Both the position numbers and the translations under genes were made by a program. A stretch of 64,000 bases of DNA, taken from NCBI GenBank assembly GCA_038078835.1, contig JBBTQI010000001.1, forward strand, positions 722 through 64,721. The letters are read 5' to 3'. Every line of letters begins with the position of its first letter. Position 1 is the first letter of the stretch. Origin of the DNA: Patescibacteria group bacterium (GTDB lineage: Bacteria; Patescibacteriota; UBA1384; XYA2-FULL-43-10; 1-14-0-10-43-13). This document shows positions 708 to 64,000 of this stretch, one piece after another. Below the pieces are notes generated by a model, which saw nothing but the letters and a program-made list of their open reading frames with translations, was not told the DNA's origin and ran no database searches.

Positions 708-715
708 AGAAAATT

Positions 716-848
716 CTGCAAATTCCAAATACCAAATGACAAACTACAGACAAACTTCAATTTTCAAGCACCAACGATCAAAGCGTTTGGAATTTGAGTA
801 TTCGGAGTTGTTATTTATTTGTGATTTGGAAATTATTATTTGGAATTT
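716..848. repeat. CAAAT/ATTTG-rich palindromic intergenic element (MITE-like family, copy 1)
   Basis: Left arm aattccaaataccaaatgacaaac and right arm tttgtgatttggaaattattatttggaatttcg are inverted relative to each other. The left arm is near-identical to the copy at 8688-8714. Confidence 0.6.
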
Positions 849-863
849 CGAGCCACTGGTGCT

Positions 864-2099
864 CTAATCAGCTATTTTACTGACTCGCCGATCTGCCAAA
901 CTGCTCCCCGCCAACACAAACAGGGTTATTGCCAGAGCCGGATTGTCCGCCCAAGTGTGGAGAAGGGCGGCGGCAATCGAAACAGCAACTATGCCCGCAA
1001 ACAAGCCGACCTCGCCCCGGCGGTACAACTGCCTCAAAACAAAATATATCAACAAAAGCCAAAGAAGCAAACCGATCAAACCCAACTCCAGCCAAAGCTG
1101 AAAGTACCAGCTCTCAGAGATCAAGCCACTGCCATACTTCACCGCCAGCGGTCCGGCCGTGCCCAATCCCGAACCAAGGAGAAATTGGGTTGGCTCATCT
1201 ACCCGCCGGACAATCTCGGCCCAGGAATTAATAATCGCGCTGTAATGCTCCGATTGCGAGGCGCCATGAGTCACGAGATCGCGCCAGAGACCAATGTTCT
1301 GATTCAAAAGCTCGACAGCGCCAACCGCCAAAATCAAAACCCCTCCCGCCGCCGCTCTTATCCAAACCTGCGTCGGCACTAAAAAGAGTGCCAGAAACGC
1401 ACCGCCGATTAATCCGATAAAAGTGGAGCGCGAAAAGGTAAAGATAACGGCAGTACCAATCAAGAGCAGACCAAAGAGATAGCGGCGGTTTTTATGCCGC
1501 CGATAAGCAAACCAGAGGAGGAAAAAGGCGGGCAGAAGATAGGCGCCAAGCTGGTTGGGAGTGCCGATGATGGAAGCGCTTTGGAGAATCGGATTGACGG
1601 CAAAGCCCCCCCAGCCAAAACCTTTACCTGCCGGAATCAGGCCCCACTCCGCCCAATAATTAGCCGGCAGGAATCTCTCGACAAGCGCCCAAAACGCTAC
1701 AAGAACCGCCACGATGAGATAGATTTTTTTAAAACGGTCTATCGTCCCGGCGGCATTGTCCCGCCACGCCAAAATCAGGATAATAACCGCCATTAAGTTC
1801 AAACGATAGCCTTCAAGCGCTCGCCCCGCGTCAGCCGAAAGGAAGAGAACGGAGATAATGCCCAGGATAATTAACGCGCAAGCGGCGACGATCAAGGGCA
1901 AAACCGGCCCTTTCCGGAAAAGATTCCGTTTAAAAATCACAAAAAATGCCCCAATCACAACCGGCTCATACCAGTGGGTTATCCAAAAAACTGCCGACTC
2001 GCTCCAAACCGTCTGCTTTTGCAGCAGATTGATTAAAAAACTCTGAAAGGGCAGATAAATTAAAAGAACCAAAAGAAAATTATCCGGCAGACGGTTCAT
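864..2099 (-). CDS. Polytopic membrane protein, O-antigen ligase/Wzy-like polymerase family (paralog 1 of 3)
   Basis: 411 aa ORF with about 10-12 predicted TM helices and a large loop, matching the Wzy_C / O-antigen ligase architecture. Family assignment is from pattern only. Confidence 0.45.
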   Translation of the reverse strand: MNRLPDNFLLVLLIYLPFQSFLINLLQKQTVWSESAVFWITHWYEPVVIGAFFVIFKRNLFRKGPVLPLIVAACALIILGIISVLFLSADAGRALEGYRLNLMAVIILILAWRDNAAGTIDRFKKIYLIVAVLVAFWALVERFLPANYWAEWGLIPAGKGFGWGGFAVNPILQSASIIGTPNQLGAYLLPAFFLLWFAYRRHKNRRYLFGLLLIGTAVIFTFSRSTFIGLIGGAFLALFLVPTQVWIRAAAGGVLILAVGAVELLNQNIGLWRDLVTHGASQSEHYSAIINSWAEIVRRVDEPTQFLLGSGLGTAGPLAVKYGSGLISESWYFQLWLELGLIGLLLWLLLIYFVLRQLYRRGEVGLFAGIVAVSIAAALLHTWADNPALAITLFVLAGSSLADRRVSKIAD

Positions 2100-4798: not shown

Positions 4799-6028
4799 GT
4801 GATGATAAAATCTTTGGCCAAAATCTTGACTTTAACAGCACTAGCCAGCTTAATCATCGGTCTTAATCCCGGGCGGCTTTTAGCGTTGGATACCTCCAAG
4901 GATAATTTCTTGAGCGGCGATTATAAAAATAATCTTATTGATGATTACTCCTTTATTGACATTAACTCTGTGGATCAGGCGGCGATTCAGAAATTCCTTG
5001 ACGACAAAGAGTCGCCCCTGCGCGACTACTCCGAAGGCGGCCGCTCGGCCGCTCAAATTATTTACGACGCCGCTCACGGCGCCAATGAAGCCAGCGGCGA
5101 CTGGGGCGGTATCAGCGTCAACACAACAACCGGCACCGTCAGTCCCAAAATTATTCTAACCTATCTGGAGAAGGAACAAAGCCTCATCTCCCGCGACGAC
5201 CGGCCCGACAACGTCCTCATCAAAGCTATGGGCTACCAGTGCTACGTTGGCGTCTCCAATGACAACAACGAAAATACCTGCAACGACCGCTATGAAAATT
5301 TTACCCTCCAGATCGAAAACGCCGCCTGGCAGCTGCGCTACAACTATGAATACGCTAAACGGGGCACCAAACCGAGCGGCGTGGCCACCCACTATTTAAC
5401 CAATGATACAGAAACTTTTTATGGCGAATACAAATACAACAACCCCGACAGTGCTTACTACAACCCCAAATATTACGGCCCCTTTGAGATAACTTTCGCC
5501 AATGCCGCCACCGCTTCCATCTATAGCTACACGCCCTACATCTTTGACAGCTCTTACAACTTCTGGCAGATCTTTAACGACTACTTCACCGCCTCGCCGC
5601 CGCCGCCGCCCACCCCCACAACCAACGACACGGCCAGATTGGTCATAAAGACTTATACCAACCCCGTTACCGTGGGCGGAAGCAAGAGCGCCGAAGATGC
5701 CGTCTTCTTTAACAACACCCTTATCGAGGTCGCCGGCAAGACCGCCTGGCAGCTCACCTTTGAAACCGAGATCGGAACCAAAACCTACACCGTTGAGTAT
5801 AAGAACGGCAACAGCGAGGTTGTCGCAACCAAGGAGATTGAGGTTACCCGGCACAAGACCGCCGACATCAACGGCGATGGCAATGTTGATATCCAGGACC
5901 TCTCCCTTCTGGCCAACTATTGGGGGCAGGAGCACCCCGGCGACCCCTTTGCCAATCTGAACCCGGGCGAGGATGAGGTTGTCGACATTATCGATTTATC
6001 AATCTTGGCCAGCAATTGGAACGGCTAA
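4799..6028 (+). CDS. Secreted protein with C-terminal type I dockerin-like domain
   Basis: Signal peptide MMIKSLAKILTLTALASLIIG, a PPPPPTPTT linker, then DINGDGNVDIQDLSLLANYW ... DEVVDIIDLSILASNW, which matches the duplicated dockerin Ca-binding loop plus helix. GGAGGGGGAG RBS upstream. Confidence 0.6.
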   Translation: MMIKSLAKILTLTALASLIIGLNPGRLLALDTSKDNFLSGDYKNNLIDDYSFIDINSVDQAAIQKFLDDKESPLRDYSEGGRSAAQIIYDAAHGANEASGDWGGISVNTTTGTVSPKIILTYLEKEQSLISRDDRPDNVLIKAMGYQCYVGVSNDNNENTCNDRYENFTLQIENAAWQLRYNYEYAKRGTKPSGVATHYLTNDTETFYGEYKYNNPDSAYYNPKYYGPFEITFANAATASIYSYTPYIFDSSYNFWQIFNDYFTASPPPPPTPTTNDTARLVIKTYTNPVTVGGSKSAEDAVFFNNTLIEVAGKTAWQLTFETEIGTKTYTVEYKNGNSEVVATKEIEVTRHKTADINGDGNVDIQDLSLLANYWGQEHPGDPFANLNPGEDEVVDIIDLSILASNWNG

Positions 6029-6029
6029 T

Positions 6030-6150
6030 CTCCTACAAAATTACAAATTTATCGAAACTACAAATACTACAAAACTATGAATCAGCGATCCCTCTTTGTT
6101 TGTGATTTTGTAAGATTTGTACTTTTGTGTAATTTGTAATTTTGTAGGAG
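6030..6150. repeat. MITE-like element with perfect 19-bp terminal inverted repeats (CTCCTACAAAATTACAAAT)
   Basis: tcctacaaaattacaaatt at 6031-6049 is the exact reverse complement of aatttgtaattttgtagga at 6131-6149. Internal arms are CAAAT/ATTTG-rich. The right TIR supplies the AGGAG SD of the downstream gene. Confidence 0.7.
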
Positions 6151-6156
6151 TGGGTT

Positions 6157-7408: not shown

Positions 7409-8740
7409 ATGAAAAAAATTGTCTTAATCTCCTCCGACAAGGTGGGTAGAACGATGGCGGGACCGGGGATCCGCTATTTTGAGATGGCTCGCGCCCTGGC
7501 CCAAGATTTTAACGTCACCCTGGCCGTCCCCAACGAGTGCGATCTGGCCGGCGAGGGCTTCTCTCTTAAGACTTACAACTCGCGCTGGCCGAGCCACACC
7601 CTCAAAGCGACGGTTGCCCCAGCCGATGCGGTTGTTGCCCAAGCCCTCTGGCCCGATCTGCTTTTTTACCTCAAGCGCCATAAAATCAAATATATCGCCG
7701 ACCTCTACGATCCCGTTGTCATTGAGGTGCTTGAATATTTAAAAAACGAACCGCCGGCCCGTCAGCGTCGGACATTTGACTTCCATCGCCGCAATCTCCT
7801 GCTGCAAGTTAATACCGCCAACCACCTCCTTTGCGCCACTCCGACCCAACGCGATTTCTACCTCGGCATCCTCTCCGGCCAGGGCCTGATTACGCCGCGC
7901 GAGTACAGCCAATCGGACGATCTGACCCGCTCCATCTCTCTCTTACCCTTTGGCCTGCCCAAAGATCCGCCCAAGCCGCCCGGCCGCTTTAAATTTGAGG
8001 AACTGTATCCGGCGATTCGACTCTCTGATAAAGTTGTTTACTGGGGCGGGGGCATCTGGAACTGGTTTGATCCCTTGACCGCTATCAAGGCAATCGAGCA
8101 GATCAGCCGGAAGCGGAGTGATATTAAACTGGTTTTTCTGGGCGCCAAGCATCCCAACAAAAAGATTAAAGCCATGGCGGCGGTGACTGAGGCCGTTGAA
8201 TACTGCCGGAAGCACGATTTACTTGACCGCTTCGTCTTCTTCAATTTTGACTGGACTCCTTACGAGGAGCGCGCCGGTTATCTTGCCAGAGCCAATATAG
8301 GCATTTCGACCCACCGCCAAAATCTTGAGACTCACTTCTCCTTCCGGACACGGATTCTTGACTATCTTTGGGCCGAACTGCCGATGGTCCTCACCGAGGG
8401 CGACGCCTTAAGCGAGATGGTGCGAGAAAAAAATCTCGGAGCGGTAATCAAGGCGAGCGATGTTCCGGGTGCGGCCAGAGCCATCATCGAGCTGGCCGAC
8501 AACGGTCGGCGGCGGGACGAGATAAAGCGCAATATCAGAGCGGTCAAAGATCAATACTGCTGGGAGAGAGTCGTTGCCAACCTGGCTGATTTGATTAAGC
8601 GGGACACCCTGCCCGATCGGCCTCTTTCTTACCTCAAACTGTTGCGCCTCGCCAAAAATTTTTACTGGGCGGGAATGATTAAAAAATTAAATTCCAAATC
8701 ACAAATAACAAATGTTTGGAAATTGATAATTGGACTTTGA
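7409..8740 (+). CDS. Glycosyltransferase family 1 (GT4)
   Basis: 443 aa with a GT4-type C-terminal domain (VYWGGGIWNWFDPLTAIKAI...LGAVIKASDVPGAARAI). The last ~18 codons (KKLNSKSQITNVWKLIIGL) are encoded by the repeat element at 8688. Confidence 0.7.
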   Translation: MKKIVLISSDKVGRTMAGPGIRYFEMARALAQDFNVTLAVPNECDLAGEGFSLKTYNSRWPSHTLKATVAPADAVVAQALWPDLLFYLKRHKIKYIADLYDPVVIEVLEYLKNEPPARQRRTFDFHRRNLLLQVNTANHLLCATPTQRDFYLGILSGQGLITPREYSQSDDLTRSISLLPFGLPKDPPKPPGRFKFEELYPAIRLSDKVVYWGGGIWNWFDPLTAIKAIEQISRKRSDIKLVFLGAKHPNKKIKAMAAVTEAVEYCRKHDLLDRFVFFNFDWTPYEERAGYLARANIGISTHRQNLETHFSFRTRILDYLWAELPMVLTEGDALSEMVREKNLGAVIKASDVPGAARAIIELADNGRRRDEIKRNIRAVKDQYCWERVVANLADLIKRDTLPDRPLSYLKLLRLAKNFYWAGMIKKLNSKSQITNVWKLIIGL

Positions 8741-8778
8741 GATTTATTTGGTATTTGTTATTTGATGTTTGGAGTTTA
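8688..8778. repeat. CAAAT/ATTTG palindromic element (copy 3)
   Basis: aattccaaatcacaaataacaaatg paired with atttggtatttgttatttgatgtttgg. Overlaps the 3-prime end of the GT1 gene and precedes the flippase start. Confidence 0.6.
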
Positions 8779-8784
8779 AAGATA

Positions 8785-13901: not shown

Positions 13902-14070
13902 TAGTTTGTTGGCAAGTTAACAAGCCTGCTAATCTCGACGTGATTCTTCCGTCATTATAGATCAATTTTTCAGTTCAGCCAAAAGTGTCAAGCCAAGTAA
14001 TATTTCTCTCCCCCTGCTCAGCCAGTTTAATATCCTTAACTTTATAATCCATACTGCCTTCCTTCTTTGC

Positions 14071-16326
14071 TTACTTGCTGTCTTGCTTACTTGCCTGCTC
14101 CTCGGAGCCTTGGCGCAGTGGGGCTGTCTTGCTGACAAAAACGATGTCGGCAATCGCATTTTCCCCGGCGACATTGATGATTTTGATCTCGTCGTCCGCT
14201 TTAATATCGATATCGCCCAGCTTGCGCCAAACAAACTTTTCCACTCCAACATCCTTGTCAACTTGGAACTTGTCACCCTTCGGGTGATCGCCCGCAGGGC
14301 GAAAAACTGAAAACTGGAAACTTCCTGACGAGCCTCCGACAAGGTGGCGAATCCAGAGCTCATAGGAGCCGCTCTCAGTCGCTTTTCCTGACAGAACGCT
14401 CTCCGGCTTGTCGGTGTAGATAAAATCCTGCCGCAGTTGGGTAAAGAGGTGTTTGCGCCAGAAATCATACCGTCCCCGACTCCAACCATCTTCATAGTAG
14501 GCAAACCCCCTTGCCCACTCCGTTATCGGCAATTGTTTAATTGCCTTATTGCCCCACTGTCCCCTTGCCGAATTGCCAATTTTGGTTATTCGATCATTGG
14601 AATTTATTTGGGATTTGTTGTTTGGATTTTGGAATTTGAAAATATGGATATTTTCCCCGAACCTCTTTGTTTCCACCAATCCCTCCTTTGATCTCACCAA
14701 TGCCAGAAGATCGGTCTGATTCCACTTTTTGACGATAACCGGATCGGTCTCTCGCCAAAGATTGGAGGCTTGAGCAAAGCGGCTCTCCGTATCCAGACGA
14801 AGAATGACGCAATCAACGCCGCCCTCTGCCAGCAGAGAGGCAAATTCGCCCTGATCATGCTTTTCGTAAAATTGCGACACTAATTCATTGCGATAGAACC
14901 GCTCGGCCGTCGGCAAAAAAGAGAAGGTCGCGCCATCGTCAAGGCGCGGCACACCCAGCGCCAGAGCCAAGAGATCGGAGTTGGCCGCATCGCGAAATTC
15001 GGCCCGCTCATCTTTAAAGTAGACAAAGCCCAGTCCCGGCGGATAATAGGCCTTTTGACACACACCGCTATCAGCCAGATAATTTTTCAGTTCCCGATAC
15101 TCCGCCGGCACTTTGGTGAGCGGCAGGTAACCGGCATAGTCAAACGTTAAATAGGGCGCGATGATAAATAAGGCGCTGCCGGCAAGCAAGGTCTTAAGGC
15201 CGGAGGCTAAAGGCCGGAGGCTAAAGGCCGATAAGCAAGCGAAAAGATAATCCAAGCCAAAGGCAAAGAGAATAATGGCGGCGGCCGCGACAATGAATTG
15301 GAGATGATAGATCTCGCGGAAAATACCCAGCGCCGGTATCCGCTCAAACAGCGCGACAAAGATTGGCCCCAACGGTCCGCTCGGACCCTTGGGAAAGGGG
15401 GCAACCGATATTAACGTCAATATGCTGGTCAGCGCCAATTCGCGGCGGGGACGATTCCCGAGGCCGAAAAGAGCCGCCAACCAGAAGACAGCCAAACCAA
15501 AAAGATAGCGGGGATCATGCGAGAGGGCGTAAAAGAAATTATGGGTAATCTGGTGATCGGAGAAGTTCAGAAAATTCCCGGCGCTGTGGGGCATCATTCG
15601 CATATACTCCAGCGTTGTGACGGCCACTGCCCTAATCTGCTCCGCACCCTGATCATAGCTCAAAGACAAGACGAACCAGGGCAGAAGAAAGAGGACAAGA
15701 GCCGACCAAGAGAAGATCAAATTAAAGAAACGCTCTCGTCGTCGCCCGGCGGCAACGAGAAGGTTAATCATCAAAAAGAGGGTCAGAAGCAGGCCCGCCT
15801 GGACTTGGGCAAAAACAAGCGAATAAAGAAAACCCAAACCAAGATAGTGCCGCCAGTTTTTTTTCTTGATATTAAAATAAAGGTGGAGAAAAAAGGGCAA
15901 GGCGGCGAAGGCCAAAAGCGACCAGCGGAAACCAACAATTGTTCGGACAAAAAGATAAGGATTAAAGGCGTAAACCAGAGCCGAAATCGTGGCAGCGAGC
16001 CGGTTTACGCCTTGCGACTTAGCGAAAAGAAAAAACCCGGCGGCGGCCAGAGCGTGAAGAAGAATAAGAAAGAGAGCGAAACTGAACTCCGGTCGAAATA
16101 GACCCAGCGGGGCCAGAAGAATCAAGCCGTTTTTGCTGGCAAAGTCAAAGGGATTGCCGGCCCGAAAATCGCCAAACTCCCGCCAAAGATTTCTCATATC
16201 CAGAAGCGGCCAATCCCAATCATAACGAAGGGGCAGGCCGTCTGATCGCAAATGCGATAAAACCAAAACAGCAAGCATCAATAAAGATACCGCAATCACT
16301 TGTTTTGATTTGATTATGTTAAACAT
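14071..16326 (-). CDS. Large GT-C fold membrane protein (YfhO/ArnT-like) with C-terminal extracytoplasmic domain
   Basis: 751 aa with an about 12-TM N-terminal region and a soluble C-terminal domain. Carries in-frame repeat insertions at 14581-14645 and 15193-15236. Confidence 0.55.
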   Translation of the reverse strand: MFNIIKSKQVIAVSLLMLAVLVLSHLRSDGLPLRYDWDWPLLDMRNLWREFGDFRAGNPFDFASKNGLILLAPLGLFRPEFSFALFLILLHALAAAGFFLFAKSQGVNRLAATISALVYAFNPYLFVRTIVGFRWSLLAFAALPFFLHLYFNIKKKNWRHYLGLGFLYSLVFAQVQAGLLLTLFLMINLLVAAGRRRERFFNLIFSWSALVLFLLPWFVLSLSYDQGAEQIRAVAVTTLEYMRMMPHSAGNFLNFSDHQITHNFFYALSHDPRYLFGLAVFWLAALFGLGNRPRRELALTSILTLISVAPFPKGPSGPLGPIFVALFERIPALGIFREIYHLQFIVAAAAIILFAFGLDYLFACLSAFSLRPLASGLKTLLAGSALFIIAPYLTFDYAGYLPLTKVPAEYRELKNYLADSGVCQKAYYPPGLGFVYFKDERAEFRDAANSDLLALALGVPRLDDGATFSFLPTAERFYRNELVSQFYEKHDQGEFASLLAEGGVDCVILRLDTESRFAQASNLWRETDPVIVKKWNQTDLLALVRSKEGLVETKRFGENIHIFKFQNPNNKSQINSNDRITKIGNSARGQWGNKAIKQLPITEWARGFAYYEDGWSRGRYDFWRKHLFTQLRQDFIYTDKPESVLSGKATESGSYELWIRHLVGGSSGSFQFSVFRPAGDHPKGDKFQVDKDVGVEKFVWRKLGDIDIKADDEIKIINVAGENAIADIVFVSKTAPLRQGSEEQASKQDSK
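14581..14645. repeat. CAAAT-family element copy inside CDS (in-frame, encodes FKFQNPNNKSQINSNDRITKIG)
   Basis: ttggaatttatttgggatttgttgtttggattttggaatttg. Same orientation relative to the coding strand as the other intragenic copies. Confidence 0.55.
15193..15236. repeat. GGCC-type 13-mer tandem repeat (AAGGCCGGAGGCT x about 2.7) inside CDS
   Basis: cttaaggccggaggctaaaggccggaggctaaaggccg. In-frame, encodes ...SAFSLRPLASGLK.... Related copies at 1-45 and 57326-57390. Confidence 0.6.
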
Positions 16327-18293: not shown

Positions 18294-20892
18294 CTCTCTG
18301 TCCTCGCCTTACCAGTAGGTACCGCAAACTTGCCAACATGGCTAACGCTGATATAATCAATCCCAGATAGAATAATCTCTGTGGCCAGAACTCAATAATT
18401 AATTCGAGGCTCTTGGTGCCATCGGGATTGGTTTGACAATGGCCGCTCTCTTGGCAAAACCTTTCTGCATTGACAATCCATGCATTAGCGTAACCGTTTA
18501 CTTTAAGATGGGTTTGAGCATCGCCAAGAGGAGCCTTAAACCAGGTTTCGGCAACTCCACCATTACCTAGATTATCATTTTGAATGGTTCCTTGGAAGTT
18601 TTTGGACACAAAGTCAATCTTGTTCCGATCGCCTAAAGTTGACACCAAACCTCGATTAACATAATCAGCCAGCTCCTCCCGAGTTGCCCCATCCGCCTCA
18701 TTCCCCCCTGGAATTTGATAAGAATTCAGCAGGTCAGCAGGTAAGCTAGTAAGCGAGTCAGCTGTCTTGCTATCTTGCTGTCTTGCTATCTTGCTTATAT
18801 AAATCTTCCACCCCCTATGGTACGCCTCATTAAAAACCAGCAGGAAGTCTTCCCTGGCCTGATGTGCAACAACGCGATATTTGACCGGGGAGATTTTCTT
18901 GAATTCAATTGCCGGAGGATTAACCGTTTCTTCCGCCAAGCGCGCCATGGATTCGGCTTTATTCGGATTGTCGCCGCCAAAGACTACTGCCGATGCCGTC
19001 TCCTTCGGCCAAATATCCAGAATTTTGGCCGGCACTTCATTTGATTTGACGATTTTTCGAGGAACGTAAATATGCGGGAGGAAAGATTGGCCGTTCAGGC
19101 GGTAGAGAAAAAAGTCGCCCCAGATTTGTACTAAAGAGAAGCGTTCACTTCTGAGCATGCTTGCGATCATCTCTCTGTTAATCTTGTTTTTATAGACTTC
19201 CTCATTGACATTATCCCGACGGAAAATAACATAACGCGTATTCAAAATCGCCAAATAGCGATCGATCTCTTCGGAGAAATTCTGAAATTCATTCTCGTAC
19301 CGACGATAAAGATCGGCTAATAGTGGTGACGATTGCGGATTAAGACCGATGCTGTTACCGTACTGGTTCAAAATTAAATAGGGGGCGGGACCGAGTAAAT
19401 TCCAGAGCGGGTCAACACCGACGCTTGACCAGCGGTAAATCGTCCAGGAGCCGGAGGGAGAGCCGGCATTATCGGGCAAAATCAGGTTGCGTTGGTCAAG
19501 GCGAATCCGCTTAACTCGCTCTGCCCCTGCATAATAATCCACCGGAATAGAGTAGTAGCGTTTAAGAAATTTATTGGGGATCACCTCGTTCCGGGGAATG
19601 ATGCCATTAATAAAGAAGGGGTAGGCGTTAATGGCAATCGCTCCCAATGTTAGAGCCAGAGCCAGCCAGCCCAACTTCCTCCGATAAGCAAATACTGCTG
19701 ATAGAGCGAGCGCCAAGAAAATCGACAGGACAAGAATGAGAATCGGATAGAATTTTTCCATCGAGAAACGGAAGATCCGAAAGGGCGTGTTGTCAATCAG
19801 CCAGGCAAAGGGAGCAGCCAGAGGATCATGAATGCCCTTAATAAGAAAGATTAAAACTAGCGCTGTTACCGCCCACACAAAGTATCTCTTCAAGTACTTG
19901 CCCTTTTCCCAGAGAAAAAAAGTCCAGGGCAACAAAGCCAAAAAGTATCCGGCCAGGATTATAAGCGGTTTGGTAAAGTAATATTTCCCGAAGAGATAAT
20001 AATTGGGATCACGTGTCGCCCAGAATCCTTGAAGGCGCAAAACCTCAAAAAAGGAAGTGAAGCGAAACTCATAATTCCGCAAGTTTCCATTGTCAACCCC
20101 GGCGCTCTGGCCCATAAACTTGCTCGATTCAAAAAAAGAGAGTGGGCGCAGAATCCACCATAGGTTGGCTAGTAGGTAAATCAGGGTAAATTGGAGATAA
20201 GTCGTTTTATTCTGCCAAATATCCCGCCGGTAGATGATGCCTAAGGGAATTAAGATCATAAAGAAGGCCAAAAAGTAAGCCGGATTCTCAAAAGCCGGGA
20301 CAGCTAAGATGTTTACAAAAATAAAATATAGAAAATAACGTGACTTAACCCTTTTCTCCTTCGCTTCAAATATCCTGATCAGATAATAAATAAGCAAGGG
20401 GGCGATGCTGTATATGAACATGGCGATCAGGAAACCGTGTCCCCAGCGATAGTTATAGAGAAAGGGATTAAGGGAGTAAAACAGGGCACCAACTAAACTG
20501 ATCAAGTTCAGTGCCGGCTGTTTCGCTAAGTTCTTTCTGACAAAATGCCGCACCAGAACAAATGCCGAGAGGCCCGAAAAAAAGAACCAGATTAAAAAAA
20601 GCATCTTCTCGGTGAGAGAGATATTGCGGGTGAAAAAGTGAATCAAGACAAGCAATGAGGTATAAATAAGCGAAGCAGCGTTCCGGTCTTGGGAAACACC
20701 CAGACCGCGAGTGTGATCCCAGCGATACCAGAGTTTCTCCGTGTCAGTGATCGGCTCAAGCATAAAGGAGAAATCGGCCACGTTGATAATGTTATTACCG
20801 TGAAACCAGAAAAAGACCTGACTGGCCAGAACGGCCAAAAGCAGGACATAAAACCAATCTCGGCTGAGAATTTTCTTGAACTTATCGATCAT
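18277..20892 (-). CDS. Large GT-C fold membrane glycosyltransferase-like protein (871 aa) with C-terminal beta domain and terminal TM anchor
   Basis: About 13 TM helices then a soluble domain. The C-terminus ...NGYANAWIVNAERF...LELIIEFWPQRLFYLGLIISALAML mirrors the YfhO-type C-terminus. Paralog of the 832 aa protein. Confidence 0.55.
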   Translation of the reverse strand: MIDKFKKILSRDWFYVLLLAVLASQVFFWFHGNNIINVADFSFMLEPITDTEKLWYRWDHTRGLGVSQDRNAASLIYTSLLVLIHFFTRNISLTEKMLFLIWFFFSGLSAFVLVRHFVRKNLAKQPALNLISLVGALFYSLNPFLYNYRWGHGFLIAMFIYSIAPLLIYYLIRIFEAKEKRVKSRYFLYFIFVNILAVPAFENPAYFLAFFMILIPLGIIYRRDIWQNKTTYLQFTLIYLLANLWWILRPLSFFESSKFMGQSAGVDNGNLRNYEFRFTSFFEVLRLQGFWATRDPNYYLFGKYYFTKPLIILAGYFLALLPWTFFLWEKGKYLKRYFVWAVTALVLIFLIKGIHDPLAAPFAWLIDNTPFRIFRFSMEKFYPILILVLSIFLALALSAVFAYRRKLGWLALALTLGAIAINAYPFFINGIIPRNEVIPNKFLKRYYSIPVDYYAGAERVKRIRLDQRNLILPDNAGSPSGSWTIYRWSSVGVDPLWNLLGPAPYLILNQYGNSIGLNPQSSPLLADLYRRYENEFQNFSEEIDRYLAILNTRYVIFRRDNVNEEVYKNKINREMIASMLRSERFSLVQIWGDFFLYRLNGQSFLPHIYVPRKIVKSNEVPAKILDIWPKETASAVVFGGDNPNKAESMARLAEETVNPPAIEFKKISPVKYRVVAHQAREDFLLVFNEAYHRGWKIYISKIARQQDSKTADSLTSLPADLLNSYQIPGGNEADGATREELADYVNRGLVSTLGDRNKIDFVSKNFQGTIQNDNLGNGGVAETWFKAPLGDAQTHLKVNGYANAWIVNAERFCQESGHCQTNPDGTKSLELIIEFWPQRLFYLGLIISALAMLASLRYLLVRRGQRDEEQI
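18721..18806. repeat. About 80-nt segment near-identical to 23296..23372, containing 8-mer tandem repeat (RTCTTGCT x4)
   Basis: gaatttgataagaattcagcaggtcagcaggtaagctagtaagcgagtcagctgtcttgctatcttgctgtcttgctatcttgct. Encodes QQDSKTADSLTSLPADLLNSYQI in-frame. Confidence 0.6.
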
Positions 20893-22874: not shown

Positions 22875-25347
22875 CCGATCTCACTCTGTCTCGCCGATAA
22901 TACCAAATTAGAAATCCCAAACAAGACAAAAAAGTAATTCCGCTTATAGCCAAGCCCAAATAAAAAACTCTCTGAAGCCAATATTCGATCACGATCTCCA
23001 TTTCGTAACCGCCATCTGAATTTAGCGCACAACCGCCGTTTTGGCAAGCCGCCGCCGGGTCAATTACCCAGGCGTTGGCGAAACCGTTGGCCGTAAGATG
23101 CGGCGTCTCAAAGGAAGGCTTAAAATACGTCTCGTAAAATGGCCCCCCCCCTAGATTATCATTCTGTATTGTACCCCGATTCTCCCGGGAGATAAACTTA
23201 ATCGTGCCCTTCTCCCCCAACGTCGTCACCAAATCTTTGGCAATGTAATCTTTAAGCTCATCTCTACTCGCCTGTTCCCCCTCATTTCCCTTCAGAATTT
23301 GATAAGAATTCAGCAGATCAGCAGGTAAGCTAGTAAGCAAGTCATCTGTCTTGCTGTCTTGCTGTCTTGCTAATTTATAGATTTTCCACTTCTCGTCAAA
23401 GCTTTCATTGAGCACAAGGCTAAAAGGTTTGCGGACGCTACTGATCTTCAGTCGGTATTTAACCGGCGAGATTTTTTTGTATTCAATCCGCGGTGCTTGC
23501 TTCCCGTCAATTTGACTTACCAGTTGATCGATTCCCCTAGGGTTTTGGCTGCGTAAAAAGACGGCTGGCGAAGTATTTTTATTAATATCGCCGCCAAAGC
23601 CTTGCAAAGCAGCTATCTCCCCGTTGATAATCCGGGCGTCGCCGGTCGCATATAAATGCGGCCGGGTATTTTTCAGGCGATAGATGACCGTTTGCCCCTC
23701 GGCAAACACCTGCTCCAGCCGACCGCCTAAAACCTCCTTCTCGAGCGCTTGCCACATTTGCCGGCGGCCATCGTTATTAAGATCGTAATTTGAGATATTT
23801 TTTCGCAAAACGATATATCTAACCCCTGTCGGCCATAAGGCGTCCGCAATATTGCCCTCGACGGTTGACTTCTTTAACATATCCAGAAAGTCAGTCGGGC
23901 CAAGGTGGCGATCGGTGGCGGTTAATAAGCCGGGAATGGGAGAGTAGATGGCAAAGATATCGCGAATGCCGCGGGAATATTTCGGGTCATCGTCAACAAC
24001 CATACCACTATAGGAATAGGGCAAATAAAGCACCTTGATATCAGCCTCTTGCCGCGCCATAAACTCCTCGGCCCGATACGCCTCAGGCGGGAAGATCTTG
24101 GTTGTCAGGCGACTGTCGTTGCCGGCGCGATGCTCCCAGGCCGCGAGCTCCCCCGACCACCAAGGGACAAGATAGGTAATCCAAATAGTAAAAAGAAGGA
24201 TGATCGCTATTCTATATTTGCGGTACGAAAGCCAAAAATGATCTACCGCCAGGGCAATCAGAACAGAGAAAGCAAAAACCGATAGCACGCTAAAACGGGC
24301 CAAATCCCGTATCACATTTGAGAAGGGAATATTGAGGAGCACTTCCCGATGCAAGCTAAGATAATACATCTCCAGAGGCACCAGGGCTACAAGCCAGAGT
24401 GAGACAATCAGCCTTCTTCTCTCTTTAATAAAAAGGGTTGGCAGCACTAACAGGGGCACTAAAAATGACAGGAGTGAAAGACCATAGTTGTTAATGATTG
24501 TTTCGTACTGCATATTGTAGAGCGAGCCCCAAAGACGAATTATATTAAGAGGATAAAAATTAAGCGTTGTTCCCCGACTTGTAGTAGCAAAGACATATTC
24601 CGAGCCGGCCACTCCCTCATCCGAGAAAAAAATCTGTTGCAAAAGAGTCGGAGACAATAGGAGAAGGGCAATTATATTGACACTTAAAAGGACCTTTATT
24701 ATTCTGCCGGGACTACCGGCCGTCTTGTAACGGTAGTATGTAAACGCTAACAGAATAATATTGAGCCAAACAAGCGATTGGGGCTGCAGAAAAGAAATTG
24801 CTATCAAAAAAGAAGTGATGACAACCGCCCGGTTGTTTCCGTTAGCCACAGCCTCAATAAAGTACTTTGCCGCCAGCGGTGCAATACCCAAGAACAAGAT
24901 AGCGTAAAACCAGCCGATGATCGCGTAGTTAAACATCACCGGAGTTGTGACATAAAATACCGCCATCAGAGCAGCAACCGGATAGCCAAACTTCAAGTAC
25001 CTGAGAAAGTTAAAGAAAGAATATCCGGCTAGGGCAAACAGGGTGAGAATTAATAATTTTATATGAACCTCGCCGCCCAGCCCGATCAAAGACATGGCGT
25101 TGTTAACAAGTTGCCTCGATAGATCAAATCCAACGGTTTGATTGCGAAACGCGACAATACTGTTAAAGTCCCAAGCGTAAAATGCCATCTGCAGGGATTT
25201 GTATGTCTGAATTTTAGTTAAGGGAAAAGCAATATCTTCACCGATAATAAATCCGGGGAGAGCAACAACGCGGAAGAGAAGCGCAACTGATATCGCGGCA
25301 AAAAAGATGAGGGGTAACAATATTTTTACTTTAGGGAAAATCTTCAT
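22849..25347 (-). CDS. Large GT-C fold membrane glycosyltransferase-like protein (832 aa), paralog of 18277..20892
   Basis: C-terminal region ARQQDSKTDDLLTSLPADLLNSYQI...NGFANAWVIDPAAAC...EIVIEYWLQRVFYLGLAISGITFL is collinear with the 871 aa protein. Confidence 0.55.
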   Translation of the reverse strand: MKIFPKVKILLPLIFFAAISVALLFRVVALPGFIIGEDIAFPLTKIQTYKSLQMAFYAWDFNSIVAFRNQTVGFDLSRQLVNNAMSLIGLGGEVHIKLLILTLFALAGYSFFNFLRYLKFGYPVAALMAVFYVTTPVMFNYAIIGWFYAILFLGIAPLAAKYFIEAVANGNNRAVVITSFLIAISFLQPQSLVWLNIILLAFTYYRYKTAGSPGRIIKVLLSVNIIALLLLSPTLLQQIFFSDEGVAGSEYVFATTSRGTTLNFYPLNIIRLWGSLYNMQYETIINNYGLSLLSFLVPLLVLPTLFIKERRRLIVSLWLVALVPLEMYYLSLHREVLLNIPFSNVIRDLARFSVLSVFAFSVLIALAVDHFWLSYRKYRIAIILLFTIWITYLVPWWSGELAAWEHRAGNDSRLTTKIFPPEAYRAEEFMARQEADIKVLYLPYSYSGMVVDDDPKYSRGIRDIFAIYSPIPGLLTATDRHLGPTDFLDMLKKSTVEGNIADALWPTGVRYIVLRKNISNYDLNNDGRRQMWQALEKEVLGGRLEQVFAEGQTVIYRLKNTRPHLYATGDARIINGEIAALQGFGGDINKNTSPAVFLRSQNPRGIDQLVSQIDGKQAPRIEYKKISPVKYRLKISSVRKPFSLVLNESFDEKWKIYKLARQQDSKTDDLLTSLPADLLNSYQILKGNEGEQASRDELKDYIAKDLVTTLGEKGTIKFISRENRGTIQNDNLGGGPFYETYFKPSFETPHLTANGFANAWVIDPAAACQNGGCALNSDGGYEMEIVIEYWLQRVFYLGLAISGITFLSCLGFLIWYYRRDRVRSDGQKVANV
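23296..23372. repeat. Second copy of the about 80-nt conserved segment / 8-mer repeat (GTCTTGCT x3)
   Basis: gaatttgataagaattcagcagatcagcaggtaagctagtaagcaagtcatctgtcttgctgtcttgctgtcttgct. Confidence 0.6.
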
Positions 25348-49523: not shown

Positions 49524-51152
49524 CTATCTCGTCTTGGCGGTTTTTTCCCTCGGCGAGAAATCCATTAAGTGGCCCAAGACTTTGCCGGCCGCTCTAAAGA
49601 GAAATTTGACATCGCTAAGATTTCTGACGCCCAGAATTTTTCTCAAGATAAACTTCGGCGTGATAAATGATTTATAAAGACCTTGCGTCAACTCTTTGAT
49701 GTCCTCCTCTGTCAAAGGTGATTTCATCACTGCCATGCGCTGGTCGTAATCCTCCCAGTCCTCCGTTAAGAGCCAGCCATTCTTTTTGCACTCGGCAAAG
49801 AGCGGCGTGCCCGGGTAAGGGATAACGATGGTTGCCTGAAGAGTGTCGACATAACCTTTATCAAAAAGCTTCTTTGACAATTCGATTGTTCTTTCGGCGT
49901 CTCTCTTGCTCTCCCAGGGATACCCCATCATCGTCGTTATATGGGGCTCAAGTCCGCCCTTCTTGGCCATCCGGACACCTTTTTCGATTTCCGCTACCTT
50001 GAGGTTTTTATTGATCCGGTCGAGCGTCTTTTGGTTCGCCGATTCCAAGCCGTAGAGAATAAAGCGAAAACCGGCCTTCCCCATCAGATTATACTCCTCC
50101 TGATTTAGAGCTTTAAGGCGCATATTGCAGTCGATTTTGATCTTCTTGTTGTAACCGCGCTCAATCATCCCCTCACAGAACTCTTTGAGCCATGATCCGA
50201 TGGGAAAGGAGCCGGAGTCGTCCATAATCTCCTTAATGTGATATTTTTCAATCAATGTGCCGATTTCGTCCAGCACTCGCTTGACCGAGTGCTTGCGGTA
50301 ATCCTTACCGGGATAAAGGGTGGTCCAGCTGCAGAACCCACATTTTCCCCACCAGCAATCGCGAGCGGCATAAGTGTAGGTCCCAGGTGTTCGCTTGTAG
50401 TTACCGTTCTTGTAGGCGTAAAGATGCCACTTGGTGAGATCCCGGTCGATCAACGGGAGCTCATCAAGATCGTGATTAAGCTCAAAATGCCCCGTGTTTT
50501 GGTAGTTGGTAGCCAGTGATTGGTATTTGGTATTTAGGGATTGAGTTTTGGAACTTATTTGGGATTTGGGATTTGGGATTTGGGATTTTCCAGAGCGGTA
50601 CCAAATTCCCGGCTCGAGTGATTCGCCGTGATTAAGATGATTAGCGATATTCAATAGAAGAAAATCATAATCGCCGCCGGTGGCAATATAATCTACCTTT
50701 GAATTTTCCATTGATTCCCGCGGCAAAGCAGTCACATGATCACCGACCAGGACAATTTTCAAATTCCAGTCTTCAGTTTTCAATGATTCTTCTTTGAGAA
50801 CATCGATTACCTTCCAGTGGCGCTTGACTACCGGCGCTTTGGTTTCCAGCATTATAAGATCCGGCTTAAACCGCTTAATCCGCTCCAGCCACTCCTCCTG
50901 TGTCAACTCCTCGGCAATACCGTCATCCCACATCACTTCATAACCCTGATCCTGAAGCAGTGAGGCCGCGTATGAGGGGACCATCGGATAAATATAGGTC
51001 GGATTATTAAACCATTGAAACTGGCGGTTCTGGCCCAAACAGGGGGTGCCCTTCTCGTCCGGCATCGGCGGATAGGAAATCGCTACCTTGAATTTCGCGT
51101 TCTTCCTCCGCTGATCTTCTGTTGGTTTGGCAATATGTTTAATTGGTCTCAT
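49524..51152 (-). CDS. B12-binding domain radical SAM enzyme (class B rSAM, probable sugar methyltransferase/modifier)
   Basis: N-terminal cobalamin-binding-like domain (KPDLIMLETKAPV...KIVLVGDHVT), then CWWGKCGFC (Cx4Cx2C) and an rSAM core. Contains an in-frame CAAAT-family element at 50497-50590 in the interdomain linker. Confidence 0.6.
   Translation of the reverse strand: MRPIKHIAKPTEDQRRKNAKFKVAISYPPMPDEKGTPCLGQNRQFQWFNNPTYIYPMVPSYAASLLQDQGYEVMWDDGIAEELTQEEWLERIKRFKPDLIMLETKAPVVKRHWKVIDVLKEESLKTEDWNLKIVLVGDHVTALPRESMENSKVDYIATGGDYDFLLLNIANHLNHGESLEPGIWYRSGKSQIPNPKSQISSKTQSLNTKYQSLATNYQNTGHFELNHDLDELPLIDRDLTKWHLYAYKNGNYKRTPGTYTYAARDCWWGKCGFCSWTTLYPGKDYRKHSVKRVLDEIGTLIEKYHIKEIMDDSGSFPIGSWLKEFCEGMIERGYNKKIKIDCNMRLKALNQEEYNLMGKAGFRFILYGLESANQKTLDRINKNLKVAEIEKGVRMAKKGGLEPHITTMMGYPWESKRDAERTIELSKKLFDKGYVDTLQATIVIPYPGTPLFAECKKNGWLLTEDWEDYDQRMAVMKSPLTEEDIKELTQGLYKSFITPKFILRKILGVRNLSDVKFLFRAAGKVLGHLMDFSPREKTAKTR
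50497..50590. repeat. CAAAT-family element inside CDS with TTGGGA x4 hexamer run (encodes KSQIPNPKSQISSKTQSLNTKYQSLATNYQ)
   Basis: tttggaacttatttgggatttgggatttgggatttgggatttt. In-frame within the rSAM gene. Confidence 0.6.
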
Positions 51153-57080: not shown

Positions 57081-58056
57081 TGGCGCGATTGCGTAAGTAA
57101 TCGCCCAGCATTTCTTGCCACGGCCTAACCTCGATCCCTAATGCTGATTTAATCTTCTCTTTGGAGAGATAGGAGTAAGCCGGACGCCTGGCCACCTGAG
57201 GATATTCTGCACTAGAGATAGGCTTTAAGTCAAGAGTTGTCCCGGTTTGAGCGAAAATTTCTTTGGCAAAATCATACCAGGAGCACGCCCCCTCGCCGGA
57301 GAAGTGGTAGATACCACATGGCAAGCTTAAGGCCGGAGGCTTAAGGCCGGAGGCTACATCAATACTGCCTTCGGCCTTTGGCCTTAGGCCTTCGACGATC
57401 TGGTTAATGAAACTGACCAGATCCCCCGTATAAGTCGGCGAGCCGACTTGATCATTGACGACCGACAACGAATCGCGCTCTTTGGCCAAGTGCAGCATTG
57501 TCTCAACGAAATTTGTGTCGGGATGTCCCTCCGGCAATTCGCCGAATATCCAGGCTGTCCGGATAATGTAATAGCCGCCCTTCGGGGACTGTCCCCCTGA
57601 GAGCCTGCCCCGTACTCGATACGGGGGGACTGTCCCCTTGTATGCTCTCTCAACCGCCAGCTCCCCTTCATACTTTGTCATACCGTACACCGAGAGCGGA
57701 TGGGGCTCGTCGGTTTCGACGTACGGGACGCCATTTTCGCCGTCAAAGACATAATCGGTGGAGATGTAAATCAGGTTTACTCCGGCCGCAGCCGCGGCTT
57801 TGGCGACATTCTCGGTGCCGGCAACATTGATCCGGCGGCACAGCGCCTCGTTCTCCTTGGCCTTGTCAACTTGAGTGTAAGCCGCCCCGTGGATAATCCA
57901 ATCCGGTTTCTCCCTTGATATGACCGCGCTGACTTTATCCGGATCGGTGATATCCATATCATCGGAATCAGTCAAAATCAGCCGGTACTTAGTACCCAGT
58001 AATTCGGAAATCTTATGGCCAAGCTGGCCTTTTGCGCCGGTAACCAGAACCTTCAT
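57070..58056 (-). CDS. rmlD: dTDP-4-dehydrorhamnose reductase with two in-frame repeat-element insertions
   Basis: MKVLVTGAKGQLG...IHGAAYTQVDKAE...NVAGTENVAKAAAAAGVNLIYISTDYVFDG, the RmlD signature. 328 aa versus about 290 typical. Extra segments coincide with the repeats at 57326-57390 and 57581-57640. Confidence 0.8.
   Translation of the reverse strand: MKVLVTGAKGQLGHKISELLGTKYRLILTDSDDMDITDPDKVSAVISREKPDWIIHGAAYTQVDKAKENEALCRRINVAGTENVAKAAAAAGVNLIYISTDYVFDGENGVPYVETDEPHPLSVYGMTKYEGELAVERAYKGTVPPYRVRGRLSGGQSPKGGYYIIRTAWIFGELPEGHPDTNFVETMLHLAKERDSLSVVNDQVGSPTYTGDLVSFINQIVEGLRPKAEGSIDVASGLKPPALSLPCGIYHFSGEGACSWYDFAKEIFAQTGTTLDLKPISSAEYPQVARRPAYSYLSKEKIKSALGIEVRPWQEMLGDYLRNRATNG
57326..57390. 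repeat. GGCC-type element: TTAAGGCCGGAGGC x2 plus inverted copy (GCCTTCGGCCTTTGGCCTTAGGCC)
   Basis: In-frame within rmlD, encoding GLRPKAEGSIDVASGLKPPALSLP. Same 13-mer as at 15193-15236, and a one-mismatch variant at 1-45. Confidence 0.6.
57581..57640. repeat. Palindromic element: GGGGACTGTCCCC x2 flanking a CCCGTACTCGATACGGGG hairpin
   Basis: ggggactgtcccc at 57584-57596 and 57625-57637. In-frame in rmlD, encoding TVPPYRVRGRLSGGQSPKGG, which is absent from canonical RmlD. Confidence 0.55.
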
Positions 58057-62325: not shown

Positions 62326-62374
62326 ATTACAAGGTAAAACTTAGCACAATGACTTAAGGCAATAGTGATAGATG

Positions 62375-62464
62375 CTCCTGCAAAATTACAAATTCAACAA
62401 AATTACGAATCTTACAAATATTTGTAATATTTGTAGTTTCGGGAGATTTGCAATTTTGTAGGAG
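62375..62464. repeat. MITE-like element, same TIR family as 6030..6150 (CTCCTGCAAAATTACAAAT ... ATTTGCAATTTTGTAGGAG)
   Basis: TIRs match with 2 mismatches. The internal acaaattcaacaaaattacgaat is near-identical to the copy at 63694-63716. Confidence 0.65.
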
Positions 62465-62477
62465 ATTGGAGGTAGTG

Positions 62478-63680: not shown

Positions 63681-63769
63681 CTCCGACAAAACTACAAATT
63701 CAACAAAATTACGAATTTTACAAATACATGTGGCGAGCAGAGTCGAATCCATTTGTAAATTTACAAGAG
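63681..63769. repeat. MITE-like CAAAT element copy (ACAAATTCAACAAAATTACGAAT core) between DUF59 gene and SOD gene
   Basis: ctccgacaaaactacaaattcaacaaaattacgaattttacaaatac paired with atttgtaaatttacaagag. Confidence 0.55.
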
Positions 63770-63775
63770 AAGTAA

Positions 63776-64000
63776 TTATTTAGCAAACCGCTCTGAAACT
63801 TTTTCCCAATTGATGATATTCCAGATACTATTAACATAATCAGCCCGCATGTTCTTGTACTTCAGATAATAAGCATGCTCCCAGACATCAATCAAGAGAA
63901 GCGGAGTGTGGCCCAGCGACAGAGGCGAATCCTGGTTGGGTAAACCATAAATTTTCAACTTGCCATTGCTTCCTTTAACCAACCAGCCGTAACCGCTGCC
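63776..64000 (-). CDS. Fe/Mn superoxide dismutase, C-terminal part (gene runs past window end)
   Basis: [37 protein letters not shown], the SOD C-terminal domain signature. The open frame continues to position 64000. Confidence 0.8.

Follow-up and report, generated by a model that had tools for sequence, protein, structure and literature searches.

We found that a dispersed, heptad-periodic hairpin repeat, here called the CAAAT family, is read in frame within protein genes of a Patescibacteria group bacterium. The DNA analyzed (the window) is a 64,000-nt stretch of contig JBBTQI010000001.1 (assembly GCA_038078835.1, positions 722 to 64,721), and the main subject is its gene for a 751-amino-acid (aa) membrane glycosyltransferase of the GT-C fold (the GT-C gene). 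The segment within this gene is probably a single arm of the family, placed in frame within a hypervariable, permissive spacer at the protein surface and tolerated there as a hydrophilic passenger loop, not as a functional module.

A single family arm in the GT-C gene

The minus-strand open reading frame (ORF) at 14071..16326 is uninterrupted, and its translation includes ...IHIFKFQNPNNKSQINSNDRITKIG... and ...GENIHIFKFQNPNNKSQINSNDRITKIGNSARGQWGNKAIKQLPITEW.... On the plus strand, the string ttggaatttatttgggatttgttgtttggattttggaatttg is located at 14597-14638. The earlier note on this DNA had described an in-frame ATTTG-rich arm within this ORF, and we confirmed it: the frame is unbroken, and the identical 751-aa protein is deposited at NCBI as a single gene (MEK9155683.1) of a Patescibacteria metagenome-assembled genome (MAG). 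The 20-nt core of the arm (Table 1) exactly matches the core of an insert in the radical S-adenosylmethionine (SAM) gene of the window and that of L016, a radical SAM ortholog locus. Tandem Repeats Finder (TRF) reported a period of 7 at 14606-14638 (4.7 copies, 73% matches, score 31), with nowhere two identical heptads side by side. A profile search found no partner arm on the opposite strand nearby, and the arm folds no better than shuffled sequences (z -1.2). GC content at the spacer is 0.40, versus 0.50 for the gene.

Family membership was assessed in several ways. Repeat finding grouped 14597-14644 with 808-855, 8737-8784, and 50548-50595. The copies at 14597-14644 and 8737-8784 are 79% identical over 48 nt, a value that the shared NNNTTTG register inflates and that was therefore not used as evidence of homology. 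The word CAAATCCCAAAT, allowing up to two mismatches, occurs 33 times in the window against 13.9 expected, a count reached in none of 100 shuffles. The three coding copies of the window, in the GT-C, radical SAM, and glycosyltransferase family 1 (GT1) genes, have the word AAATC(C/A)CAAATAA in common, read as K-S-Q-I. When the 20-nt core AAATCYCAAATAARTTCCAA was scanned through a metagenome collection, the pattern was found in at least 120 stretches. An nhmmer profile was then built from 110 of the metagenome copies, with window sequence excluded. This independent profile matched four loci with six arms in the 64 kb (Table 1), including two intergenic hairpins that had given nothing to the search pattern. 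Since the copies had been fetched by the core, the core columns were removed and the flanks tested alone. The GT-C flanks scored 28 bits, within the top 7e-5 of window positions, and none of 20000 shuffles of the same flanks equaled this score. Membership of the GT-C arm is thus independent of the fetching step. The proposal of the earlier note that the radical SAM gene and the GT1 C-terminus carry the same family also held, given the profile match of the former (E=3e-14) and the extension of the GT1 tail into an arm of the hairpin at 8680-8784. Within the GT-C arm, 14597-14642 is the confident part, and 14578-14596 may be ancestral spacer.

Table 1. Repeat features of the window, the GT-C host gene, and PF05635 genes of related loci. 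Positions are those of the window unless a locus is named.
Feature	Position	Strand	Description
GT-C host gene	14071..16326	-	GT-C-fold membrane glycosyltransferase, AftD/STT3-like, with C-terminal CBM6-like beta-sandwich; intact single 751-aa ORF
Single A/C-rich (CAAAT-sense) arm of the heptad hairpin family	14578..14642	-	in-frame FKFQNPNNKSQINSN(DRITKI); profile match at 14578-14642, E=1.5e-12
20-nt non-periodic core AAATCCCAAATAAATTCCAA	14597..14616	-	codons AAA TCC CAA ATA AAT TCC (K S Q I N S)
In-frame insert, 84 nt / 28 aa	50502..50585	-	B12-binding radical SAM gene 49524..51152; AAATCCC x4, core, degenerate heptads
Profile match, radical SAM insert	50521-50596	-	E=3e-14; encodes ...KSQIPNPKSQISSK...
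Profile match, intergenic hairpin	8698-8781	-	E=4e-7
Profile match, intergenic hairpin	775-857	-	E=1.6e-5
Profile matches, left arms	714-742 / 8687-8713	+	E=0.036 / 0.075
TRF period-7 arrays	719-737, 8695-8713, 8745-8772		intergenic hairpins
Complete intergenic hairpin	712..858	-	directly 3' of the stop of gene 864..2099(-); fold z -4.7 (+), -2.3 (-)
Complete intergenic hairpin	8680..8784	+	arms 8687-8713 / 8753-8779; -27.2 kcal/mol, z -4.4
PF05635 gene between inverted CAAAT-family arms	L036:7103-7629; L136:4394-4904; L058:9940-10399; L131:2-912
PF05635 genes adjoining GT-C orthologs	L002:1437-2083; L008:10598-11042; L013:15160-15641		bracketed by periodic inverted arms of other 7-9-nt units

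The host gene and the location of the arm

Pfam gave no match for the window GT-C protein itself, and PF11847 is present on some of its orthologs. We modeled the protein with AlphaFold, using the ortholog alignment as input (mean per-residue confidence, pLDDT, 75.6; overall confidence, pTM, 0.70). The model has a multi-helix membrane domain to about residue 393, a soluble alpha/beta domain (~400-565), a strand at 560-565, a coil with the lowest confidence, and a beta-sandwich at ~600-735. Foldseek placed the model with AftD (6w98, E=1.7e-9) and also with yeast and human STT3, PglB, and DPY19, so the GT-C label is correct; the C-terminal domain was grouped with CBM6 modules. The family segment is the coil following strand 560-565, with pLDDT<50 at residues 569-573 (NNKSQ), and the site is hypervariable across orthologs, in line with the surface loop for which the earlier note had suggested looking in a predicted structure. 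The position that it had given, between the transmembrane region and the soluble domain, is not correct: in the model the segment lies ~170 residues past the last transmembrane helix, between the soluble alpha/beta domain and the CBM6-like beta-sandwich.

Assemblers can be misled by low-complexity repeats, and some related genes are broken at tracts of this kind; the ORF might be a mis-assembly, a pseudogene, or two joined genes. We see next to no chance of this, because six contigs from several sources all encode the identical 751-aa product and the model packs as one protein. In addition, 20 orthologs with 40-47% identity are collinear with the protein across 94-98% of it, and invariant residues are retained on either side of the segment (W535 and K547; W604 and R617-Y620). 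The ORF is therefore one gene, and the two-gene alternative raised in the earlier note is excluded.

The arm replaces variable spacer in the GT-C gene and does not lengthen it

All GT-C orthologs have a hypervariable spacer, commonly of 16-17 aa, after the conserved ...NIYIFK strand and before a semi-conserved (K)TGxxAIQQF. The spacer sequence is not conserved between orthologs, and the alternative, also named in the earlier note, that the segment is conserved ancestral sequence does not hold. In the orthologs it is built of other non-triplet tandem repeats, namely TTTCCAA x4, CCAGATT x4, GGGACTC x4, AGTCCAAA x3.5, ACTTACA x3, and CTCGGAA x3, of which the first five begin directly after TTCAAA. 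When the family profile was run over the fetched GT-C and radical SAM ortholog loci (10-22 kb each), the core family was found only in L016 and L017 and, weakly, at the GT-C site of L004. Repeated insertion of one family at the GT-C site is thus unsupported, other repeat units filling the site in orthologs.

No ortholog with an empty site was found among the 20 or more GT-C orthologs aligned, and spacer lengths are similar, so a discrete insertion event is not demonstrable for the GT-C copy. Because every ortholog has a spacer of similar length, the arm replaced a variable spacer without net lengthening of the protein. The earlier note had called the arm inserted; this holds for an in-frame family member and does not hold for a net insertion. 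The GT-C spacer is a hotspot for the recurrent uptake of short repeats, and in the window ~13-15 codons of it (14597-14642) are CAAAT-family arm.

Three genomes (GT-C linkers of L003, L010, and L014) share an almost identical GC-rich mini-palindrome, CTGCCTCGCCGGCAGGCGGG, which lies in frame inside heptad arrays and encodes PASPAGG. The GT-C linkers of L002 and L008 hold another nested in-frame mini-palindrome, CAACCCyTCGACTkCGCTCAGGGCAGGC, encoding NPSTxLRAG. These are reminiscent of Nostoc, in which small dispersed repeats reportedly lie within heptamer arrays.

The presence of a comparable-length spacer and (K)TGxxAIQQF in every ortholog suggests that spacer length may be selected. On this basis the N/K/S/Q-rich peptide could be an ancestral, required tether between the catalytic/periplasmic and CBM-like domains, with the DNA repeat incidental. 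We regard this as very unlikely, since the spacer sequence is wholly unconserved between orthologs, the DNA family is mostly non-coding, and the GC content of the spacer is below that of the gene.

Clean insertion and heptad slippage in the radical SAM gene

The clean empty site is that of the radical SAM gene, not of the GT-C gene. Orthologs of the radical SAM protein are 60-83% identical to it, and many at 64-83% identity, both within and outside the candidate phyla radiation (CPR), lack the insert and have a tight GIWYRxGK-xIKNTGHF turn. This empty turn is found in P0031, P0035-37, P0058, and many non-CPR orthologs, and the radical SAM copy is therefore a true insertion. At exactly this turn, additional stretches of 8-50 residues, which differ in sequence, are present in many CPR orthologs; the window protein has 28. 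In clusters of radical SAM proteins with at least 90% identity, the insert is swapped wholesale for unrelated sequence of nearly equal length (P0086 vs P0145; P0032 vs P0177). Orthologs of the Kuenenia type (anammox type), P0123 and P0136, have a different low-complexity insert, LQPSASNLYHPTSSLQP / LQTSAFNLKPQTSNLQH, in another loop, which suggests that repeat-derived loop insertions are not limited to CPR.

The radical SAM tract of the window (50557-50588) consists of 4.6 perfect ATTTGGG copies (TRF, 100% matches), and this coding copy, too, folds no better than shuffles (z -0.06). Both coding copies are single arms without a fold, so they are not palindromic elements within a gene. The tract reads GGGATTT x4 on the plus strand, a formal G-quadruplex motif on the template strand. 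A G-quadruplex reading was rejected, as it fits only the radical SAM tract and not the GT-C copy.

Related loci differ in heptad number. L016 has AAATCTC x4 followed by the core, and its gene is intact (L016:599-669). L017, from another metagenome and with identical flanks, has AAATCTC x2 and is frameshifted into ORFs of 202 and 326 aa (L017:3565-3615). L018 has AAACTCG x4 in place of AAATCTC. The difference between L016 and L017 therefore reflects slipped-strand change of heptad copy number in nature. Young arrays often have about four perfect heptads, whatever the unit (window 50557-50588; L001, L006, L011, L016, L018).

Such slippage could in principle make the GT-C tract a phase-variation switch, in which a shifted frame would deprive a surface-glycan enzyme of its C-terminal carbohydrate-binding domain. 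The host genes are in glycan biosynthesis, the sister radical SAM tract is intact with four heptads and split into 202 + 326 aa with two, and the database entry of an element-bearing Falkowbacteria serine hydroxymethyltransferase (SHMT) is divided into two partial ORFs (PIR92430.1 and PIR92431.1). We nevertheless consider such a switch extremely unlikely: the GT-C tract has no identical adjacent heptads and so is not slippage-prone, the 751-aa product is identical on all six contigs, and the tract lies in the last quarter of the gene, not near its 5' end. Being degenerate and invariant in this way, the GT-C copy appears to be a stable fossil. A -1 frameshift site (C CCA AAT) was also considered and discarded, because it runs straight into TAA.

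The third coding copy lies at the end of the GT1 gene (7409..8740), which runs ~14 codons into the left arm and loop of the hairpin at 8680-8784 (NSKSQITNVWKLIIGL*; C-terminus ...KKLNSKSQITNVWKLIIGL*). Orthologs of GT1 finish at a conserved ...AG(F/L)(R/K)KK(F/L)xK* (...AGFRKKFxK*).

The family across genomes

The metagenome copies share stereotyped flanks: A/C-rich heptads (AAATNCC, AAGCACC), the core, ...AATGACCGAAAC, a loop, and GGTCATTGGA...GCTTATTTGG...GGTGCTT. The core pairs with a downstream arm in 58 of 105 copies. In 687 kb of element-bearing loci, 169 of 176 arms lie outside long ORFs. Intergenic copies fill the entire spacer (median gap ~190 nt). They favor neither convergent nor tandem nor divergent neighboring genes (73/18/10% versus 71/15/14% at baseline), and a dedicated terminator as the primary role was dropped on this ground.

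Copies embedded in proteins were found in several conserved enzymes. In SHMT a 21-aa in-frame insert is a clean gap against the Thermus SHMT structure 8ssy, and in MurB a 9-aa in-frame insert at a beta-turn is a gap against structure 3tx1. The core is also in frame in arginyl-tRNA synthetase (ArgRS). A FemAB-like protein carries the family with both arms in frame, an arrangement seen only in L081 among the embedded copies. The CAAAT-sense orientation is common to all five confident embedded arms, the two embedded copies of the window (GT-C and radical SAM), and L016. Two frames are used, giving KSQINS (GT-C, radical SAM, GT1, SHMT, ArgRS) or IPNKFQ (MurB). The third frame of the core holds TAA, and five long ORFs terminate there. 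The earlier note had stated that the repeat is always read in one frame and orientation; the orientation is constant and the three window copies share one frame, whereas the family as a whole uses two. This pattern is the residue expected from selection against stop codons and against the W/L/F/G-rich, hydrophobic peptide.

Judging from neighboring proteins, the hosts include a Falkowbacteria MAG, the ACD58 aquifer bin, the Deltaproteobacteria MAG RBG_16_50_11, and the Omnitrophica MAG SM23_72. Host flanks range from 0.29 to 0.67 in GC content, and the element is constant near 0.36. Since left and right flank GC agree (r=0.84), the element-bearing contigs are not chimeras. Among viral contigs there were only two matches, with no sign of phage carriage. 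Rfam searches of the window (gathering threshold) and of 13 element-bearing loci (E-value threshold) gave no family matching the element, only a spurious miRNA-hairpin match and the 23S rRNA of L088. In the literature searched there was no description of the element strings or of such repeats in CPR.

These data also bear on whether the GT-C spacer was born locally as a microsatellite that grew by slippage, seeded by the A-rich TTCAAA(T) codons in the conserved I-F-K strand, and that resembles the CAAAT family by convergence. The ortholog spacers, built of other non-triplet repeats that start after TTCAAA, would fit such an origin, as would the change of heptad number between L016 and L017, and variable heptad positions agree at only ~9 of 15 between window copies. 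Heptameric simple sequence repeats (SSRs) are over-represented in many bacteria, with polymerase slippage as a possible cause (PMC4692102). Slippage alone, however, would not recreate an exact non-periodic 20-nt core, including the AAATAAATTCC irregularity, together with matching flanks in at least 120 unrelated contexts of several phyla, and AT-rich sequence in hosts of 60-67% GC cannot come from local composition. We therefore judge a local origin unlikely and favor a family arm in the GT-C spacer.

A proposed link to 23S rRNA intervening sequences and PF05635

In L088 (1450-1615), a complete 126-nt family hairpin replaces a 6-nt loop at a helix tip of 23S rRNA (Rfam large-subunit [LSU] model positions ~282-289). 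As placed by Rfam LSU model numbering, this site seems to differ from the classical intervening sequence (IVS) sites (helices 9, 25, and 45). The hairpin insert has short GC-rich stem-loops at both ends, and the same rRNA has a second insertion of 87 nt at model positions ~164-170.

Clustering of 486 ORFs adjacent to elements yielded one recurrent small protein, a four-helix bundle of PF05635 / TIGR02436, the '23S rRNA intervening-sequence protein' (Pfam E=1e-13 to 1e-15; TIGR02436 E=1e-17 to 1e-22). At L036, L136, L058, and L131, where its gene lies between inverted family arms, the N-terminus (M.KIQNSK...) is encoded by the arm. Other PF05635 genes adjoin GT-C orthologs, within arms of different repeat units (Table 1). 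Classical IVSs are described as selfish stem-loops, AT-rich (36% GC in Coxiella), that occupy the tips of 23S helices and in some cases carry an S23p ORF. Their distribution is sporadic and their transfer probably horizontal, and an old suggestion is that the ORF served mobility (PMC4990558). Because some loci hold a PF05635 gene in the hairpin loop, the ORF-less CAAAT hairpins resemble miniature IVS-like derivatives; judged by architecture, they look like miniature derivatives of IVS-like elements that reside mostly outside rRNA.

A broader proposal, which we put forward only tentatively, is that CAAAT hairpins are the miniature form of a cross-phylum, IVS-like selfish family whose full form has the S23p/PF05635 gene between heptad-periodic arms. 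Such a family would spread within and between uncultivated genomes (CPR, Omnitrophica, and Deltaproteobacteria), making 23S expansion segments and, wherever an in-frame A/C-rich arm is on the sense strand, new surface loops of proteins, with tracts that are prone to frameshift. If so, 23S IVSs and the S23p family would gain a life outside rRNA and a candidate role in arm binding or mobility, and the family would be the first RPE-like (Rickettsia palindromic element) protein-colonizing repeat outside Rickettsia.

How copies may come to persist in genes can be outlined as follows. The usual form of the family is an inverted pair of arms making a 100-200-nt hairpin that fills an intergenic spacer, in some genomes with the PF05635/TIGR02436 gene in its loop. 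Survival within a gene would need a loop site, a sense strand that is A/C-rich (N/K/S/Q/P/I and not W/L/F/G peptides), and a frame avoiding the TAA of the core. After arrival, arms would gain or lose 7-nt units through slipped-strand events, and the GT-C copy, with its degenerate heptads, would now be a stable fossil.

Several points weigh against these interpretations, among them the lack of an empty site in GT-C orthologs. Because the consensus of the family is for the most part a plain run of AAATNCC heptads, slippage may have produced some of the similarity convergently, and the GT-C array adjoins the conserved TTCAAA (F-K) codons, a possible seed. RNAalifold on 27 hairpins gave neither a consensus structure nor covariation, and hairpin arms are not compensated; because of the RNAalifold result we claim no conserved RNA fold. 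Defined termini, target-site duplications (TSDs), and a transposase were not seen for the elements. Arm ends are ragged with variable heptad number, no TSD was evident in 53 aligned hairpins on qualitative inspection, and no recurrent transposase was present among the 486 ORFs adjoining elements, the window ORFs not having been exhaustively scanned. The PF05635 association is known from a handful of loci, with no PF05635 gene within the 64-kb window, which is the part of this genome covered.

Other repeats in the window

A second repeat family is in frame in the GT-C gene at 15193-15237, where a 14-nt unit, AAGGCCGGAGGCTA, is present in 2.5 copies with 100% matches. It encodes LSAFSLRPLASGLK in another ortholog-variable loop (residues ~363-378) and is 97% identical over 31 nt to 57326-57356, an arm of a GC-rich intergenic hairpin (57318-57398, z -4.2). 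Positions 3-42, at the start of the window, hold a related array. The GT-C protein also has an 18-aa C-terminal tail, TAPLRQGSEEQASKQDSK, present in no ortholog (14067-14094), and an 8-nt tandem repeat resembling TTGCTTAC encodes the end of this tail. Two paralogous large genes contain comparable 8/16-nt repeats (18759-18802 and 23343-23378).

A separate hairpin subfamily, CTCCTACAAAATTACAAAT...ATTTGTAATTTTGTAGGAG, is present at 6026-6153, 62372-62468, and 63681-63780 (z -9.6 and -9.2) and is not matched by the CAAAT profile. Its copies stop immediately 5' of start codons, with a stem GGAG at the Shine-Dalgarno place. From this placement, sequestration of the ribosome-binding site is suggested as a possibility.

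Comparison with known systems

Rickettsia palindromic elements, reportedly described by Ogata et al. in 2000, were the likeness drawn in the earlier note, and it is a good one on the whole. The CAAAT family shares with them the dispersal of short repeats between and inside genes, in-frame reading in surface loops of conserved enzymes, presence in RNA genes, and constraint of coding copies in orientation and frame. The likeness fails in that the coding copies are non-folding single arms, mostly one arm and not the whole palindrome. Furthermore, the family resides in CPR, Omnitrophica, and Deltaproteobacteria instead of Rickettsia, no sequence relationship is known, the arms are variable-number 7-nt arrays, two frames are used, and the tracts still slip and can break genes.

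Like the 23S IVSs with an S23p/PF05635 ORF of Leptospira and Coxiella (PMC4990558), the family forms stem-loops of ~36% GC from terminal complementary sequences, has a four-helix-bundle S23p-family ORF in some loops, and replaces a small loop at an rRNA helix tip (L088). Classical IVSs are known only from rRNA helices 9, 25, and 45, whereas CAAAT copies are mostly outside rRNA and mostly ORF-less, have heptad-periodic arms, and in some cases are translated within protein genes. The terminal complementary stem-loop is a property of full CAAAT elements (z -4.4 to -4.7) and not of the single GT-C arm.

Heptameric repeats are said to include the cyanobacterial short tandemly repeated repetitive (STRR) sequences and the Xanthomonas-Nostoc GGGNATC repeats of Mazel (1990) and Elhai (2008). 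Heptameric SSR/STRR sequences (PMC4692102) resemble the CAAAT family in their tandem 7-nt unit, mostly intergenic location, frequent tandemly inverted pairs, ~four units, length variation between close relatives, and small GC-rich elements nested within arrays. They differ in being reported as under-represented in coding regions and in not being described as in-frame protein or rRNA insertions, and the CAAAT family has a conserved non-periodic core and long stereotyped arms across phyla. Variation in unit number was seen in the family (L016 x4 vs L017 x2) but not in the GT-C copy (six identical contigs). A phase-variable contingency locus would show an identical-unit tract with on/off length variants, which is absent in the GT-C copy and present in the radical SAM ortholog tract.

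REP doublets forming hairpins (REPINs) and miniature inverted-repeat transposable elements (MITEs) are likewise non-autonomous-looking inverted doublets that form hairpins, have high copy number, are mostly extragenic, and possibly derive from a gene-carrying parent. CAAAT arms are far longer than REPs, are internally periodic, and lack a GTAG head, no REP-associated tyrosine transposase (RAYT) or other recurrent transposase was found among the 486 ORFs next to elements, and no defined termini or TSD were seen.

With copies in SHMT, MurB, ArgRS, radical SAM, and 23S rRNA, streamlined CPR genomes show a general way in which tiny genomes can gain protein loops as well as expansion segments of rRNA. 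The link between PF05635 and the hairpins makes the nature of 23S IVSs, their mobility, and S23p function testable. In practice, the tracts lead to genes in MAGs being called as split or 'partial', translated arms inflate 'hypothetical protein' counts, and marker-gene alignments and phylogenies can be misled. To our knowledge, selfish repeats that colonize conserved proteins in frame have essentially been described only in Rickettsia; what is new here is RPE-like behavior by an apparently IVS-related, heptad-periodic element in other phyla.

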